From an uncultured Chloroflexia bacterium (lineage in GTDB: Bacteria > Chloroflexota > Limnocylindria > Limnocylindrales > CSP1-4), in the NCBI GenBank assembly GCA_963816675.1, contig CAWFLS010000011.1:207430-271429 (forward strand): a stretch of DNA of 64,000 nt, written 5' to 3'. A model generated the notes under the pieces. The model saw only the letters and a list, made by a program, of their open reading frames with translations, was not told the DNA's origin and made no database searches. This document shows positions 36,450-42,314 of the stretch, in pieces; position 1 is the first letter of the stretch, and each line of letters begins with the position of its first letter. Both the position numbers and the translations under genes were made by a program.

Positions 36450-36839
36450 ATGACTGTTCGAAGAATCGTTCCGGACTTCGCGACCGATCGTTTGGCCGAG
36501 AGCCGCGACTTCTACGAGAGCGTCCTCGGCATGCAAGTGGCGATGGACCTCGGCTGGATCGTGACGCTCAAGTCACCCGACGCCGACCTGGCCCAGATCA
36601 GCTTCCTGACCCGCGATGCCACGGCACCGGTCGTCCCCGACCTGACAGTCGAGGTCGAGGACGTCGATGCGGTGTATGCCACGGCCCAACAGCGCGGCGA
36701 GGAAATCGTTTATCCCCTGACAGACGAGCCGTGGGGCGTGCGTCGCTTCTTCGTCGAGGACCCTGACGGCACTGTCGTGAACGTGATGTCGCATCGCCAG
36801 ACGCCTCAAGACTCCGAGGCGGATGCCGGTCCAGCGTGA
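36450..36839 (+). CDS. VOC / glyoxalase-bleomycin-resistance family protein
   Basis: Internal ATG gives MTVRRIVPDFATDRLAESRDFYESVLGM...PWGVRRFFVEDPDGTVVNV. Confidence 0.7.
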   Translation: MTVRRIVPDFATDRLAESRDFYESVLGMQVAMDLGWIVTLKSPDADLAQISFLTRDATAPVVPDLTVEVEDVDAVYATAQQRGEEIVYPLTDEPWGVRRFFVEDPDGTVVNVMSHRQTPQDSEADAGPA

Positions 36840-36863
36840 CCACGGAGATATATCTTCACGACG

Positions 36864-37457
36864 ATGGAGGTCCTGCCGCTCACCCCTGATCGGTTGCCGG
36901 ACCTCGCTGCCCTCTTCGAACAGGGCGGCGACCCGAAATGGTGCTGGTGCGCCTACTTCCGGATCCGCGGTTTCGACTTCTCGAGCGGCGGCAAAACGCG
37001 CCATCGCGCGGTCATGGAGGAGGCCGTCGTCGAGACTGCCAGGGAGCAGCGCGCGCCCGGCCTGGTCGCCTACGACGGCGATGAGGCCGTCGGCTGGATC
37101 AGCATCGGGCCACGTGCGGATTACGAGCGTTTGGCCCACTCGACGGTCCTCAAACCGGTCGATGACGAGCCGGTCTGGTCGATCGTCTGCTTCGTTGTCG
37201 GACGGCGTTCGCGCGGCCAGGGGTTGGCACGGACGCTCCTCGATGCGGGCATCACGTACGCTCGCGAGCACGGCGCGACGATGCTTGAGGCGTACCCGGT
37301 CGAGGTCGCGGAGGGCGAGCGGGTCCCCTCGGCAAACCTCTTCCGCGGCACGTTGGCGATGTTCGAGCGCGCCGGCTTCGAAGTCGTCGCCCGCCGGTCC
37401 GCACCTGGCGCACGGACGCCTCGCCCGATCGTCCGGCGCCTCGTCGACCCGCGGTGA
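36864..37457 (+). CDS. GNAT family N-acetyltransferase
   Basis: Intact 197-aa ORF. CFVVGRRSRGQGLARTLLDAGITYAREHGATMLEAYP is a motif A-like acetyl-CoA site. Confidence 0.75.
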   Translation: MEVLPLTPDRLPDLAALFEQGGDPKWCWCAYFRIRGFDFSSGGKTRHRAVMEEAVVETAREQRAPGLVAYDGDEAVGWISIGPRADYERLAHSTVLKPVDDEPVWSIVCFVVGRRSRGQGLARTLLDAGITYAREHGATMLEAYPVEVAEGERVPSANLFRGTLAMFERAGFEVVARRSAPGARTPRPIVRRLVDPR

Positions 37458-37771
37458 TCGAGCCGCCAACACGAGAGCGCCGAAGACGTGCATCCTCCGC
37501 AAGTCCGTCGATCGCCCGTGCGTCGGACGCACGTTATGCCGGCCGCTACCGATCGATGTTGCGTCAGACGAAATCGACGCGACTCGCAGCACCTCGGCGT
37601 CCGACACGAGACCTCGAATCTGCCGCCCGATGCGATCCAGCCACACATTCAGCGCCAGTCGGGACTCGCGGCGACGGGACGTGCATCCGAACGCAAGGCG
37701 CGCGGCCCCGCGCAGCCACCGTCCCGTTCCTACGTCATATGTCGGTCTTTTGACATCGTCGTCTGACGGGG

Positions 37772-37801
37772 TTGACACCCGTTTCGCACGGCGCGTAGAC
37801 T
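37772..37801 (+). promoter_or_regulatory. Sigma-70-type promoter (TTGACA-18 nt-TAGACT)
   Basis: TTGACA at 37772..37777 and TAGACT at 37796..37801, within the most AT-rich patch of an ~700-bp gene-free region. A second TTGACA lies at 37750. Confidence 0.5.
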
Positions 37802-37854
37802 GCCGACCGGCTCGCAGGTCGCGGGCATGGATCACGCTAAGGGAGACGGCTCGA

Positions 37855-37941
37855 ATGACGACGAACCCGTTCCTCCTTTCCCGATGCGTTGCGCCTATCA
37901 GTGGCGACGCACACGGGAGATCTGTGCCCATCTCGAGCTAG
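37855..37941 (+). CDS. Candidate 28-aa leader peptide (uORF) MTTNPFLLSRCVAPISGDAHGRSVPISS
   Basis: GGGAGA RBS (37841) lies 8 nt before the ATG. The uORF is embedded in a helix (37823..37833 pairs with 37919..37929) and followed by a terminator. There is no homology evidence. Confidence 0.3.
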   Translation: MTTNPFLLSRCVAPISGDAHGRSVPISS

Positions 37942-37979
37942 ACCGCAGGCGGCAGGACCGCCCTCCGGACGAACCACGA

Positions 37980-38011
37980 GCCGTGGGCCAGATCGGGCCC
38001 CCGGCTTTTTT
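37980..38011 (+). terminator. Intrinsic terminator / attenuator
   Basis: GCCGUGGGCC-AGAUCG-GGCCCCCGGC followed by UUUUUU. A T6 run is exceptional in this sequence. A second terminator-like hairpin plus UUUCGUCGUUU lies at 38051..38110. Confidence 0.55.
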
Positions 38012-38159
38012 CATGCCCTCCCCTGCCAACTCGGCAGGGCGGGACACGACAGCCGCGAGGCCCACCCGACGACCACCGTCGGATCGGACCCGCGGCTTTC
38101 GTCGTTTCCCGACCACTCCCCCACCCACCCCTGGCTGCACTCGAACGCTGGAGTCTCAC

Positions 38160-39057
38160 GTGACCGCTCTCCTGAGCCCCGAACTGAAGAACGGCTCGAC
38201 CGGGCAGTCGCCGCTGCCCGTCCGAGTCGACGCCGCCGGTCACGACGAACGCCGTGCCCGCCCTCCTGATCGAGGACGTCAGCAAGGAGTTCATCGTCGG
38301 CCGGAAGAAGAAGCCGGTCACGGCGATCTCCCACGTGTCGATGCGCCTCGAGCGCGGCGACATCCAGGGCGTCCTCGGCGCCAACGGCTCGGGCAAGTCG
38401 ACGCTCATCAGGCTGGTCTCCGGCCTGCTGACCCTCGACACGGGACGGGTAACGGTCTTCGGCCACGACCTCGAGCGTGACGAGATGGCGGTCAAGCGGC
38501 TGATCAACCGGGTCAGCGTGGACGCCGCCTTCTTCAAGAAGCTGAGCCCGATGGAGAACCTCCTCTTCGCAGCCCGCCTGTACGGCCTCGATGGCCGGAA
38601 GGCGAAGCAGGAAGCGGTCGTGATCCTGGCCCGGCTCGGCATCGCCCGGAAGCGGCTCGACAGCCCTGTCGAGCAGATGAGCCGAGGGATGCAGCAGAAG
38701 GTCGCGATCGCGCGAGCACTGCTCACGAGCCCGACGCTGCTGCTGCTGGACGAACCGACGACCGGCCTGGACCCGCGCTCGAAGCTCGACGTCCAGTCCT
38801 TCATCGAGGAACTGCACGAGACGCACGACGCAACGATCGTCCTGACGACACACGACCTGGCCGAGGCAGAACGCCTCTGCTCTCGCATCACGGTCCTCAA
38901 CGACGGCCGCATCGTCGCCGAGGACACACCCGAGGGTCTCAAGGCCCTCGTCACGAACGGCGACGGTCGCCCGGCGACCCTCGAAGACGTGTTCATGACC
39001 TACACCGGCCGCTCGCTCGACGACGACGTCGAGGAGGACGAGCGCCGAGAACGATGA
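38160..39057 (+). CDS. ABC transporter ATP-binding protein (ABC-2/DrrA-like exporter ATPase); start either GTG 38160 (with a frame slip ~38245) or GTG 38254
   Basis: ORF 38254..39057 carries GANGSGKST, the signature MSRGMQQKVAIARAL and LLLLDEPTTGLD. Only the 38160 GTG has an RBS (GGAG, 6-nt spacer). Confidence 0.85.
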
Positions 39058-39076: not shown

Positions 39077-39274
39077 ATGTTTTACGCCATGCAGATGGAG
39101 GCCGAGCGGATCCAGGAGCGGATCGAACGCGACTTCGCGTTCGCCGCGGCCCGGCGCCTGACGCGCTCCCGAGCCCACGCCGTTCCATCCGTCGCGCGAT
39201 CGGTCGCCGGTTCATCCGAGATCGGTACGCGCATCGCGGCGGAACCCTCATTCGAGTCGGTCCGGTCCCTGTGA
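39077..39274 (+). CDS. 65-aa hypothetical micro-protein between the ABC ATPase and permease genes
   Basis: AAAGGAGGTGA Shine-Dalgarno sits 5 nt before ATG 39077. Sequence: MFYAMQMEAERIQERIERDFAFAAARRL... I recognise no family. Confidence 0.4.
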   Translation: MFYAMQMEAERIQERIERDFAFAAARRLTRSRAHAVPSVARSVAGSSEIGTRIAAEPSFESVRSL

Positions 39275-39311: not shown

Positions 39312-40117
39312 GTGACCATCGTCGCCCATGAGCTGAGGGCCTCATACGCCTTCATCGAGCGAAACTTCTATCTGAGCCGCCGCTACTGGGGCTGGGAGAT
39401 CGCATTCCTGGCCTATTCCGTCGCGGGCGCGCTCTCGATCTCGCTCATCGGTGCCGACCAGGGCAACGAGACGTTGCTGCTGTCCCTGATGGTCGGAGCG
39501 ATCTTCTGGAACTACCTGTCGGTCGTGTTCTCGTGGATCGCCGACATGATCTCGATCGAACGCTGGGAAGGCACCCTCGAGTACACGATGATGGCGCCGA
39601 TCCGGCGCTGGTCGCATGCTGCTCGGCTCGGTCGTCTACGCGATGATCTATGGCCTGGTCCACACGTCGGTCATCTTCGTCGCGCTGATCCTGTTCTTCC
39701 CGCAGCTCGACCTGTCGGCGGCGAACCCGCCGACGGTCGCGACGTTCATGCTGATCGGCTCGTTCAGCTTCGTCGGCGTCGCCATGATGGTCGCGATCCT
39801 GCCGCTGCTGTACGTCGAACGCGGCTCGCAGATGTCCATGGTCGTCCAGTCGGTCCTTCTGCTGGTCAGCGGCGTCTACTACTCGATCGACGTCCTGCCG
39901 CCGTGGATGCAGGTCCTCGCCGCATCTCTCGCCAGCGACGTACGTCCTCGCCGGCGTCCGGGCTGGACTCATCGAGGGGAAACCGGTGACCGAGCTGACG
40001 GACCTCCTGTGGCCGCTCGTCGTGATGGGCATCGTGCTGATCCCGTTCGGGCTGTGGGCGTTCGGCCGTGCCGAGCGCTACGCCAAGCGGACCGGCAAGC
40101 TGAAGCGGGTGGGCTGA
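39312..40117 (+). CDS. ABC-2 type transporter permease; two frame breaks (~39605, ~39930)
   Basis: Stitched from ORFs 39312..39989 and 39616..40122 plus a third frame ending ...LWPLVVMGIVLIPFGLWAFGRAERYAKRTGKLKRVG*. About 6 TM segments. Confidence 0.75.
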
Positions 40118-40152: not shown

Positions 40153-41269
40153 ATGGCGCCGCCGCACGCCGGCACGAACGCTCGCTCGCGGCGCTCGGCT
40201 GGGACGCCGCCTGGGCGGAGGCCTTCGAGCCGCATGCGGCCGCGGGCCTCCGCCCGGCGCGCGTCGTCGCCGTCCATCGCGAGACCTCGATCGTCCGCGA
40301 CGGGGCCGGCGACAGGCCGGCCGTCGTGTCCGGCACGTTCCGGTTCGCTGCGCTCGCCCGCTCGGACTTCCCGACCGTCGGCGACTGGGTCGGCGATCGA
40401 TGGCGACGACGTCGTGAGCTCGATCCTGCCGCGTCGCAGCATCTTCCGGCGGATGGCCCCCGACGGCAGCCGTCGCGGAACCAGCCTCGACGACGAGCAG
40501 GTCATGGCGGCCAACGTCGACGTCGCGCTGCTCGTCGCGGGACTCGACAACGACTTCAACCTCCGGCGGATCGAGCGCTACGTGGCGGTCGCCTGGTCGA
40601 GCGGCGTCACGCCGGTCGTCGTCCTCAACAAGGCCGACCTCGCCGACGACGTCGACGGCCGGCTCGTCGCGGTCGAACGCTGTCGCACCCGGCGTGCCGA
40701 TCGTCGCCGGTTTCGGCGTGGACGGGCGCCGGCCTCGACCTCCTGCGCGGCCATCTTCTGACCCGGGACGACCGCGGCCATCCTCGGATCGTCCGGCGTC
40801 GGGAAGTCGACGCTCGTCAACGCGCTGCTCGGCGAGGCTCGGCAGGCGACAGCAGAGGTTCGCGGCTCCGACTCGCGCGGTCGCCACACGACCACGCACC
40901 GCGAGCTGTTCGAGCTGCCCGGCGGCGCGCTTCTCGTGGACACGCCGGGCATCCGCGCGCTCGAGGTGCTCGGCGCGGACGAGGGCGTCGACGCGGCCTT
41001 CGACGACGTCCGCGACATCGCGCTGACGTGCCGGTTCTCCGACTGCCACCACGACGGCGAACCGGGATGTGCCGATCCGAGCGGCGCTCGACGACGGACG
41101 CCTGTCGGAGGAGAGGCTCGCCAGCCATCGCAAGCTCGAGCGCGAGTCGGCCCGCGCCGCGCGCGAGGGTGACCCGCGGGCCCGCGCCGAGCATCGTCGG
41201 ACCTGGAAGATCATCCACAAGTCGGTCAGCGAGCACATGGAACGCAAATACGGGAGCGGACTCGGATGA
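40153..41269 (+). CDS. rsgA: Ribosome small-subunit-dependent GTPase A; at least four frame breaks
   Basis: Pieces: LAALGWDAAWAEAF; ILPRRSIF..R; NVDVALLVAGLDNDFNLRRIERY; VVLNKADL; GSSGVGKSTLVNALLG; RGRHTTTHREL; DTPGIR; the zinc knuckle CRFSDCHHDGEPGC; end ...ERKYGSGLG*. Confidence 0.85.
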
Positions 41270-42314
41270 CGACCTCGACCGAGACGATCGACTGGCATCG
41301 GCCCTGTCCGCGCCGAGGCTCCCGTCGCCATCCCCTGGTCTGCCGCTTCCGGACCGTGGCGCGACGACTCGCGACTACGACGCGATGGCCGCGGTCATGA
41401 TCGCCGCGAGCCAGGCCGACGGCGTGCCGTGGGCGCCGACCGGCGAGCTGCTCCGGATCGACAAGACCGGACAGTCCGACGATCGATCCCGCCCGCGACA
41501 TCGTCCTCGCCGAGGTCGACGGCCGGCTCAGTCGCGTGTACGGCCAGGTCGAACGTGTCATCCGCGAGGGCGAGCCGATCTACGAGACGTGGGGTGCCGT
41601 CCATCCCGACGTCCGCCGGCGCGGCATCGGCAGCGCGCTTCACGCCTGGAACATGCGACGTGCCCACGAGCGCGCCGCGACGCTCGAGCCCGGACGCTCC
41701 GGTCACCCTCGAGGCGCACGTCGAAGAGGGCGAGGTCGGTAACGCCGCGCTGTCGTCGCCCGCGGCTTCGAGGTCGTCCGGCAGCTTCCAGCTCATGCGC
41801 CGCGACCTGACCGAGCCGCTTCCCGACGTCCCGCTGCCCGACGGCCTTGAGGTTCGGCGACGTTCGCCCGGAGGACCATCGGACCGATCTGCGATGCCGA
41901 GGACGAGGCGTTCCGCGAGCCACTGGGGCGCTCGCGAACCATACCGACCACGACTTCGCGCTACACGTTCGACCGCACGGAGCTCGACACCGGCGCTGTG
42001 GGTCGTCGCCTGGGACGGCGACCTAGTTCGCAGGCGTTGTCGAGAACTGGATCTGGCGCGACGAGAACGCGACCCTCGGCGTGCGATCGAGGCTGGTTCG
42101 AGCGGGTCAGCGTTGGCCGGCCGTGGCGTCGTCGCGGTCTCGGCCGAGCGATGACCGCGTTGTCACTCGTCCGCCTGCGCGACGCCGGCATGACCGAGGC
42201 CATGCTCGGCGTCGATGCCGACCAACTCGACTCGGGGCCGTCGCGCTGTACGAGGGCGTCGGCTTCGAGGTCCACCGGACGCGAGTTCGCGTACCGGCGG
42301 GTCGACGCGCGTAG
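41266..42314 (+). CDS. Two-domain GNAT acetyltransferase (MshD-like architecture); many frame breaks; 3' end uncertain
   Basis: The first GNAT core is HPDVRRRGIGSALHAWNM. The second is GRPWRRRGLGRAMTALSLVRLRDAGMTEAMLGVDA...ALYEGVGFE. ATGA overlap with the rsgA stop. Confidence 0.6.

Follow-up and report, generated by a model that had tools for sequence, protein, structure and literature searches.

The leader of vmlR from Bacillus subtilis combines an open reading frame that lies upstream (uORF) with an anti-antiterminator, an antiterminator and a terminator (Takada et al. 2022, PMC9226507), and in the same species the bmrB leader peptide controls bmrCD through the ribosome-mediated attenuation of an ABC exporter, with a translated small open reading frame (ORF) that overlaps the alternative stem-loops (Reilman et al. 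2014, PMC4191407). For the uORF attenuator of whiB7 in mycobacteria, activation by translational stalling has been proposed, the alanine-enriched uORF being tuned to alanine starvation (Poulton et al. 2023 preprint, PMC10274678); msrDL is a further attenuator with matching logic (PMC10314930). Here, we have analysed the leader of an ABC-2 exporter operon that is located between positions 37457 and 38160 of a 64,000-nucleotide stretch of DNA from an uncultured Chloroflexia bacterium (GTDB class Limnocylindria; GenBank assembly GCA_963816675.1, contig CAWFLS010000011.1), to which we refer in what follows as the window.

Our comparison indicates that this leader is very probably a ribosome-dependent (leader-peptide) attenuator of transcription, because the frame, the Shine-Dalgarno (SD) site and the stop of its uORF are kept in about 100 sequences, an antiterminator is formed from the last codons of the uORF, and 88 of 90 distinct elements are followed, within 800 nt and on their own strand, by the Walker A motif of an ABC ATPase. 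Of the options that a first-pass annotation of the window had named, i.e. a ribosome-mediated attenuator, a ligand-dependent one or an independent small RNA, it is the first that agrees with the conserved features; the key pairing, however, would be that between the uORF end and the terminator (its 5' arm and its loop), which the annotation had missed, and not the long-range helix that it had placed in the 5' part of the leader.

The 702 bases that separate the stop codon of a GNAT acetyltransferase gene (37457) from the start codon of the ABC ATPase gene (38160) carry no coding signal in GC3 (the GC content of third codon positions), as expected for the otherwise gene-free stretch of about 700 bp that had been annotated. 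The long ORFs that extend over this gap (36823-37941 on the forward strand, 36573-37931 and 37938-38996 on the reverse strand) lack the signal as well and have been discarded as artefacts of the high GC content, which is 70% for the contig. The assembly contains numerous frame breaks, and the completeness score of the source genome is only 68%. A scan of the region against Rfam 15 gave no family at the gathering score, and only chance-level hairpin matches at E-values up to 10, in line with the first reading, which had recognised no known riboswitch class.

Homologues have been gathered by a BLAST search of the region in relatives from the same genus and by a pattern scan of the GTDB species genomes; about two thirds of the sequences come from the pattern, which fixes a hairpin, P1, and ten bases of the 5' arm of the terminator, T1. 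The covariance model R1 begins with the uORF end and extends as far as the terminator; alignment A1 consists of 67 sequences, and alignment A2 of 31 deliberately diverse sequences that have been aligned to the antiterminator model. About 100 distinct homologues share one common layout: a TTGACA-N18-TAGACT promoter, an SD site, a uORF of 26-33 codons, P1, the U-tract terminator T1, two hairpins, H2 and H3, and then the gene of a DrrA-like ATPase, followed by a small ORF and by the gene of an ABC-2 permease. The region is present in 23 of the 24 genomes of the genus (71-84% identity), and R1 matches a single copy per genome in 173 of the 301 genomes of the class, in 113 of the 154 high-quality ones, and in 43 of 57 genera, from two families. 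The hosts of the homologues are Limnocylindria, a class of the Chloroflexota, and an actinobacterial origin, which the GC content had at first suggested, has been rejected; many of the hosts are nanopore metagenome-assembled genomes (MAGs) from Microflora Danica that were found by the pattern scan. The genomes of genus g3 that are missed by R1 have a divergent yet recognisable copy that retains all parts; in the small-genome family f2, R1 gave no match, and the permease orthologue is likewise absent.

The leader ORF and its alternative pairings

A GGGAGA-N8-ATG arrangement opens a uORF of 28 codons plus TAG at 37855-37941 of the forward strand, on which all features below are located; both had been annotated at this place. 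The encoded peptide is MTTNPFLLSRCVAPISGDAHGRSVPISS. The SD site (37841-37846), 8 nt 5' of the ATG, reads GGGAGA here and GGAGG in most relatives, and it is found throughout the homologues. The start was chosen as the ATG nearest to the SD site, with the frame ignored, and this ATG is in frame with the conserved core of the uORF in 73 of 74 sequences, the sole exception being a nanopore MAG whose sequence has one nucleotide inserted when compared with that of a near-identical relative. The distance from the ATG to the core is 54, 57, 60 or 63 nt, i.e. there are four length classes, all multiples of three, and the stop is located 24 nt after the core in 71 of the 74 sequences, with TAG in 65, TGA in 6 and TAA in 3 cases; divergent genera have a matching uORF arrangement, with 18-33 codons. 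Since the ATG remains in frame across the four length classes, and the position of the stop is fixed while its identity varies, these sequences argue that the uORF is almost certainly translated. The SD site can also be paired, as had been noticed before: in the minimum free energy (MFE) fold of the window, its partner is the pyrimidine tract CCGTTCCTCCTTTCCC (37867-37882). CUCC or CUUCC is present in 52 of 77 homologues, and in other clades the tract pairs with the GGGAG of the uORF end instead.

Terminator T1 (GAGCCGUGGGCC-AGAUCG-GGCCCCCGGCUU, 37978-38011), which corresponds to the hairpin with U6 that had been annotated at 37980-38011, consists of a stem at 37978-38007 and a U6 tract at 38006-38011; it is 97.5% paired on A1 and 94% paired on A2, with a U-run after the stem. 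The consensus that RNAalifold has returned for 62 leaders is not this terminator, but an antiterminator: the uORF end and the 5' half of T1 are joined in one long hairpin. Its 5' strand, B-ext (37914-37935, CGGGAGAUCUGUGCCCAUCUCG), consists of the uORF codons G-R-S-V-P-I-S, including AGA-UCU, and its 3' strand, C-ext (37977-38000), consists of the 5' arm of T1, its loop and the first C's of its 3' arm (CGAG..GUGGGC CAGAUC ..CCC). Written by helical segments, the two strands read CGGG-A-GAUCUG-U-GCCCAU-CUCG and CGAG-CC-GUGGGC-CAGAUC-GGG-CCC, with P1 at the tip of the hairpin; the antiterminator and T1 are mutually exclusive.

In the segment that extends from the uORF end (B) to T1, the antiterminator is the MFE structure in 64 of 78 sequences, with a median of -44.2 kcal/mol as opposed to -36.6 kcal/mol for P1 plus T1 when B is masked, and it already reaches -39.7 kcal/mol before the 3' arm of T1 is available. 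It is 93.5% paired on A1, compared with at most 43% in slid controls, and 88.6% paired on A2, where 15 of its pairs are changed on both sides as opposed to 7.0 in shuffles (0 of 500 shuffles reach 15), and where its covariation score is 0.189 versus 0.078. The most telling evidence for the antiterminator is the covariation of the T1 loop with the uORF codons, because a terminator itself needs no particular loop sequence: CAGAUC faces GAUCUG in the main group and CAAAUC faces GAUUUG in L118, with further variants in L048 (CAGUGUC/GGACUG), in L166, L181 and L182 (CACC/GGUG), in L183 (CACA/UGUG) and in L161 (GGAC/GUCC).

Hairpin P1 (37943-37968), which starts 6 nt past the stop codon, consists of GGCGG-CAGGA-CCGCC at 37948-37962 and a CCG/CGG extension; its distance to the stop is 5-7 nt among the homologues. 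It is 100% paired in A2, with three pairs changed on both sides, GGCGG/CCGCC being replaced by GGGGC/GCCCC in genus g3, and, being at the antiterminator's tip, it possibly serves as a spacer or causes a pause. Covariation in related genomes, a point on which the first-pass annotation had let its reading depend, is thus seen in P1, in the antiterminator, including the T1 loop and the codons, and in the apical part of H3.

Upstream of these elements, TTGACA-N18-TAGACT (37772-37801) is the only match to a sigma-70-type promoter in 37300-38500, fitting 10 of 12 positions, with 0.0 matches in shuffles; the hexamers and their spacing are kept in more than 70 of 83 homologues, so that the near-consensus promoter of the first-pass annotation is borne out, with a predicted transcription start near 37808. 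Immediately 5' of the -35 box there is a conserved motif (37740-37767), which reads CATCGTCGTCTGAC here and CATCGTCGTCCGTC in most relatives of the genus, with a second (C/T)GTCGC about 10 nt further upstream; it may be an operator or an UP-like element, through which the leader promoter would be subject to additional transcriptional control.

In the MFE fold of the window, the uORF end is paired with segment A (CGGCUCGCAGGUCGCGGGCAUGGAUC, 37809-37833) of the 5' untranslated region (UTR), a candidate strand of an anti-antiterminator. The 11-bp long-range helix that had been annotated between 37823-37833 and 37919-37929 does form in this fold, with nine Watson-Crick and two G-U pairs, but all 11 pairs are present in only 6 of 77 homologues and at least 9 of the 11 in 51 of 77, its duplex z-scores are modest (median -1.3), and no alignment-wide helix corresponds to it; we have therefore rejected it as a conserved regulatory pairing. 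In 35 of 78 full-length folds, 8 bp or more are formed between B and the 5' UTR, the upstream partners of B being concentrated in the 5' UTR and uORF codons 2-9, and clades differ in the 5' UTR segment (GGCUCG or CUAGCUC) that faces one common CGAGCUAG. These varied segments suggest that the pairing may matter, though they are no proof, and the upstream pairing of B could act as an anti-antiterminator, as in vmlR. Separately, CGGCU(C/U) is present four times in the leader (37811, 37848, 38002, 38093), so that many alternative pairings are possible.

The effect of the position of the ribosome on these structures has been explored in 78 leaders by setting a 28-nt footprint (-12 to +15) at each codon. 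With the P-site anywhere between two codons before the core and the stop codon (inclusive), all 78 leaders form T1 if pairs that span the ribosome are excluded, and 69-75 of them do so if such pairs are permitted; from one codon before the core onward, the antiterminator forms in none of the 78. With the ribosome further upstream and spanning pairs disallowed, the antiterminator forms in 44-83% of the sequences.

Comparative sequence analysis supports a conserved promoter, a uORF that looks translated, covarying terminator and antiterminator alternatives, and a fixed linkage to the ABC operon, and the direction of regulation that we infer is as follows. Transcription would start near 37808 from the strong promoter (the start, termination at 38011 and readthrough are predictions), and the antiterminator, which excludes T1, could be formed by B-ext with positions 37977-38000, i.e. 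with the loop and the 5' arm of T1. In the OFF state, the leading ribosome would be located on the codons of B-ext, or on the stop codon 9 nt beyond, while the polymerase makes T1; with the antiterminator strand masked, T1 would fold, and transcription would end at the U6 tract (38011). In the ON state, translation of the uORF would be delayed or stalled upstream and B-ext would be free, capturing the 5' arm of T1 on its emergence, before the 3' arm is made, with readthrough into the ATPase, the small ORF and the permease. As T1 is very stable, antitermination would have to be kinetic. The firm part of this model is that a ribosome on the uORF end would lead to termination, and a free uORF end to antitermination; the signal would probably be general translation stress (ribosome-targeting compounds, starvation), and not one amino acid.

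Several points weigh against this reading. In divergent genera, T1 and not the antiterminator is the MFE structure of the segment from B to T1 in 14 of 20 sequences. The pair counts from A2 are biased towards the antiterminator, to whose model this alignment was fitted, and the pattern behind about two thirds of the sequences fixes P1 and part of the 5' arm of T1. When spanning pairs are allowed, a ribosome that is located upstream leaves the antiterminator in only 10-36% of the sequences, because the upstream sequence then pairs with B. Unmasked full-length folds contain T1 in 68 of 78 sequences, and in equilibrium full-length folds with ribosome masks T1 is never lost unless spanning pairs are forbidden; such folds were discarded as a search for the antiterminator, which has been seen only in the folds of the segment from B to T1 or by RNAalifold. 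RNAalifold on 45 leaders has found no helix between the 5' UTR and the uORF end that is common to the family; with no conserved helix for the anti-antiterminator, the state of the leader in the absence of translation is uncertain. Finally, H3 is situated between T1 and the genes and, if it is an efficient terminator, would need a bypass of its own.

Peptide, codons and alternative explanations

The N-terminal half of the uORF peptide lacks conservation. In its "GRSVPISS" end, the wobble positions are almost invariant, the alternation between V and A coincides with the single unpaired base of the antiterminator helix, and the last three residues vary freely (ISS, WSR, TSS, PLE and others); L052 keeps the nucleotides CUCGAG in a shifted frame, which yields PLE before the stop. 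The source of the conserved "AP.G" motif is a hairpin inside the uORF (UGCGUUGCGCC-loop-GGCGACGCA, 37885-37911, from the MFE fold), for which compensatory variants of GCGCC...GGCGC have been read straight from the homologue sequences: GCACC/GGUGC (L029, L070, L035), GGCACCGC/GCGGUGCC (L101) and ACGCCG/CGGCGU (L111). The conservation of the peptide would then be mostly a shadow of RNA pairing, and the leader offers a clean comparative example of such a conserved "peptide", with a terminator loop that covaries with codons.

The codons AGA-UCU (37918-37923), located within the antiterminator strand, are among the rarest of the genome, with 0.4% of the Arg and 2.6% of the Ser codons. Rare codons occur at core codon 2 in 105 of 107 homologues and at core codon 3 in 95 of 107, the alternatives being AGG and CGA (2.7% and 8.5% of Arg codons) and AGU (1.7% of Ser codons), while CGC, CGG, UCG and AGC are never seen at these two codons in the same 107. 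The rare codons may serve to keep the ribosome on the antiterminator strand; they may also merely reflect the constraint of pairing.

Sensing of a specific amino acid, as in trpL, hisL or leuL, has been rejected, since there is neither a codon run nor a strong enrichment in the uORFs: no residue is present three or more times in most of them, and among the residues that account for at least 5% of positions the highest ratios are those of Thr (1.84x) and Pro (1.77x), with Ala at 1.05x; Cys, Asn and Met have higher ratios, but occupy only 2-4% of uORF positions. A precursor of a ribosomally synthesised and post-translationally modified peptide, or a small secreted peptide, has also been rejected, the N-terminus being unconserved, Pfam giving no match, and the sequence being neither hydrophobic nor Cys-patterned.

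The alternative that survives best, although we consider it quite improbable, is that the nascent peptide is the sensor, its C-terminal half (..AP.G....GRS[V/A]P.S. before the stop) arresting the ribosome at or near the stop in response to a small molecule or drug, so that the arrest sets the RNA fold; the TnaC, SpeFL, Erm and Msr leader peptides are arrest sensors of this type. Consistent with it, and with some selection on the amino acids themselves, G-R-S-V-P is kept class-wide with the stop always three codons later, and its Arg and Ser are retained across codon families (AGA, AGG and CGA; UCU, UCC and AGU), including in L183 and L158. The conserved nucleotides, however, double as the antiterminator strand, and the almost invariant third codon positions, the unpaired V/A site, the covariation of the terminator loop with the codons, the out-of-frame CUCGAG of L052 and the free variation of the last three residues count against the peptide as the sensor. 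Moreover, a ribosome arrested on these codons would cover the antiterminator strand, so that termination would be favoured and the signal would be a repressing and not an inducing one.

Slightly less probable still is an independent small gene, encoding a protein of 28 residues and/or a stable RNA of about 200 nt that ends at T1, with the exporter being expressed from unregulated leak or from another promoter. The strong promoter, SD site and canonical terminator of the leader would suit such a gene, as would the stable rod into which the terminated RNA folds (-95.8 kcal/mol) and the fact that RF00013 finds no 6S RNA in the source genome, which is incomplete; attenuator RNAs and leader peptides can also act in trans, as do rnTrpL and peTrpL (PMC6614838, PMC7968998). 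In a stand-alone gene, however, an antiterminator with loop-codon covariation would be purposeless. No conserved promoter has been found between T1 and the ATPase start, the element is tied to the ABC operon and absent where the transporter is absent, and the peptide has an unconserved N-terminus, is not hydrophobic and matches no Pfam family. The small RNA of the first-pass annotation may be a by-product of the attenuator, but is unneeded. A rod-like RNA of the 6S or Ms1 type, as its length of about 200 nt might suggest, has been rejected: RF00013 matches neither this locus nor any other part of the genome, and the locus carries an ORF whose frame is conserved.

A ligand-binding riboswitch, in which the 5' domain (the leader, the SD helix and the internal hairpin) would be an aptamer that sets terminator versus antiterminator and the uORF would be incidental, is very improbable. 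In the window, the RNA between the predicted start of transcription and the stop codon does fold into a three-way junction, which the long-range helix closes, and alternatives of terminator and antiterminator are typical of riboswitch expression platforms. Rfam, however, is negative, no consensus structure is found for the 5' domain, which is less conserved than all other parts, conservation peaks in the expression platform and not in an aptamer-like domain, and the conserved frame, SD site and stop position would be unexpected for an incidental ORF.

Downstream hairpins and the exporter operon

Two further hairpins follow T1, both as annotated, and both are conserved. The sequence of H2 (CCCUGCC-AACUC-GGCAGGG, 38021-38039) varies among relatives while the hairpin is kept. 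H3 (38051-38107, with its stem at 38051-38097) is present in 75 of 83 sequences, with a median of -32.3 kcal/mol; its base stem, (G)AGCCGCG/CGCGGCU(C), i.e. GAGCCGCG/CGCGGCUC, is invariant, its apical part covaries freely, and its tail (UUCGUCGUUU) is U-rich but imperfect, with 4-6 U in 10 nt. H3 is at best a non-canonical terminator, possibly a back-up for T1, so that the "tandem terminators" of the first-pass annotation amount to one canonical terminator and one strong hairpin with an imperfect U-tail.

The 5' arm of H3 is nearly a copy of that of T1, with (C)AGCCGCGAGGCC at 38050-38063 compared with GAGCCGUGGGCC at 37978-37989, and as a consequence the 3' arm of T1 (D) is able to pair with the 5' arm of H3 (E). 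The D:E duplex has -20.4 kcal/mol, as opposed to -20.6 kcal/mol for the arms of T1 themselves (C:D); D pairs with E in 84 of 100 folds of the segment from D to E, and for positions 37995-38066 the MFE is -41.1 kcal/mol (z -4.5). A tentative elaboration of the attenuator, with a chance that we judge to be rather low, is a two-stage "relay" with a built-in speed bump for the ribosome: once the antiterminator has formed, the 3' arm of T1 (37996-38007), being released, would bind to the 5' arm of H3 (38051-38063), and this back-up terminator would be disarmed as well, while behind a polymerase that merely leaks past a folded T1, H3 could still form and would halt it; the rare Arg (AGA/AGG/CGA) and Ser (UCU/AGU) codons would delay the ribosome on the antiterminator strand for long enough to secure termination. 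It counts against the relay that the H3 hairpin is still the MFE structure with the antiterminator in place, and that its U-tail is imperfect; judging by these folds, the relay would be available kinetically and unfavoured at equilibrium.

Between H3 and the SD site of the ATPase gene there is a C-rich, G-poor spacer (CCCGACCACUCCCCCACCCACCCC, 38107-38134), with similar spacers in relatives; it could be a Rho loading site or a tract that masks the SD site.

The DrrA-like ABC ATPase gene (38160-39057) opens with GGAG-N6-GTG (38150-38162). The orthologues share an in-frame N-terminus, VT..L...LK, from the GTG at 38160, so that the annotated start is the one in use, but in the window assembly the gene itself is broken: its frame is lost between about 38200 and 38254, and the ORF that matches Pfam ABC_tran (38254-39057) lies in another frame. 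The ATPase, which has an N-terminal extension of about 45 residues, matches TIGR01188 drrA (2.6e-65, below the curated cut-off) and PF00005. It is followed in the operon by a conserved ORF of 65-70 codons, an ABC-2 permease of PF01061 (8.1e-17 in an orthologue), and often rsgA. In the window, the permease is split over three frames (39321-39617, 39613-39924 and 39923-40114); since the orthologues are continuous, the breaks in the ATPase and permease genes are most likely indels of the nanopore assembly.

The small ORF between the two genes (39077-39274), which has a perfect SD site (AAAGGAGGTGA), is frame-slipped in the window and conserved in four orthologous loci from short-read assemblies (...SIRQ.VGR.IIRIG.RLAAEP.FE.VRSR before the stop); a GC hairpin is located after it, and Pfam gives no match for it. 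An rsgA-like GTPase gene, also frame-slipped, is located after the permease (40153-41810), as in several orthologous loci.

Comparison with known attenuators

Our literature search has not found a description of this element family, and nothing on gene regulation in the Limnocylindria turned up. The element is an undescribed family of a well-known kind of regulator, with a textbook mechanism that is neat but unsurprising to a specialist: a well-supported cis-regulatory RNA family with no Rfam 15 match, present as a single copy per genome in most genera of an abundant uncultured class of soil Chloroflexota. The comparative evidence suggests that the Chloroflexota make use of leader-peptide attenuation of the classical type, with canonical U-tract terminators, and it would mark the operon of ATPase, small protein and ABC-2 permease as one that is switched on when translation falters, which makes it a candidate exporter of ribosome-targeting natural products.

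The mutually exclusive pairings of the leader (2:3 and 3:4, with a candidate 1:2 anti-antiterminator), and termination when the ribosome reaches the stop, are shared with the trp-type attenuators (trpL, hisL, pheL); unlike in these, there is no regulatory codon run, the candidate region 1 is located largely in the 5' UTR and not in the ORF, and the controlled genes are not biosynthetic. The logic matches more closely that of the attenuators that respond to antibiotics or translation stress (vmlR, bmrB-bmrCD, whiB7 and msrDL), none of which is related to the leader in sequence. With the whiB7 leader it shares a high-GC organism, a long leader, a uORF of variable sequence that is followed by a terminator, and a proposed activation by stalled translation; the uORF of whiB7, however, is enriched in alanine, while no amino acid is strongly enriched in the one described here, and the gene downstream encodes a transcription factor in the one case and a transporter in the other.

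As in bmrB-bmrCD, an ABC exporter would be controlled by alternative stem-loops that overlap a small ORF, and rare codons, which influence the decision in the bmrB leader ORF, are found here as AGA-UCU inside the antiterminator strand. There is no homology between the two: bmrB is about twice as long, with its terminator within the coding region, and BmrCD is a type I heterodimeric exporter, in contrast to the ABC-2 exporter of this operon.

The vmlR leader differs in that the gene that it controls encodes an ABC-F ribosome-protection factor and not an ABC-2 membrane exporter operon, and it has no relationship in sequence or in Rfam with the present leader, which comes from Chloroflexota of 70% GC; here, moreover, the 5' strand of the antiterminator is the uORF end itself, with the stop 9 nt beyond it, and the anti-antiterminator has no conserved helix. 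What the two leaders have in common is a short leader uORF, an intrinsic terminator and an antiterminator whose availability would be set by the position of the ribosome, possibly with an upstream anti-antiterminator and a pause element as well, and in both of them compromised translation is the likely signal for induction.

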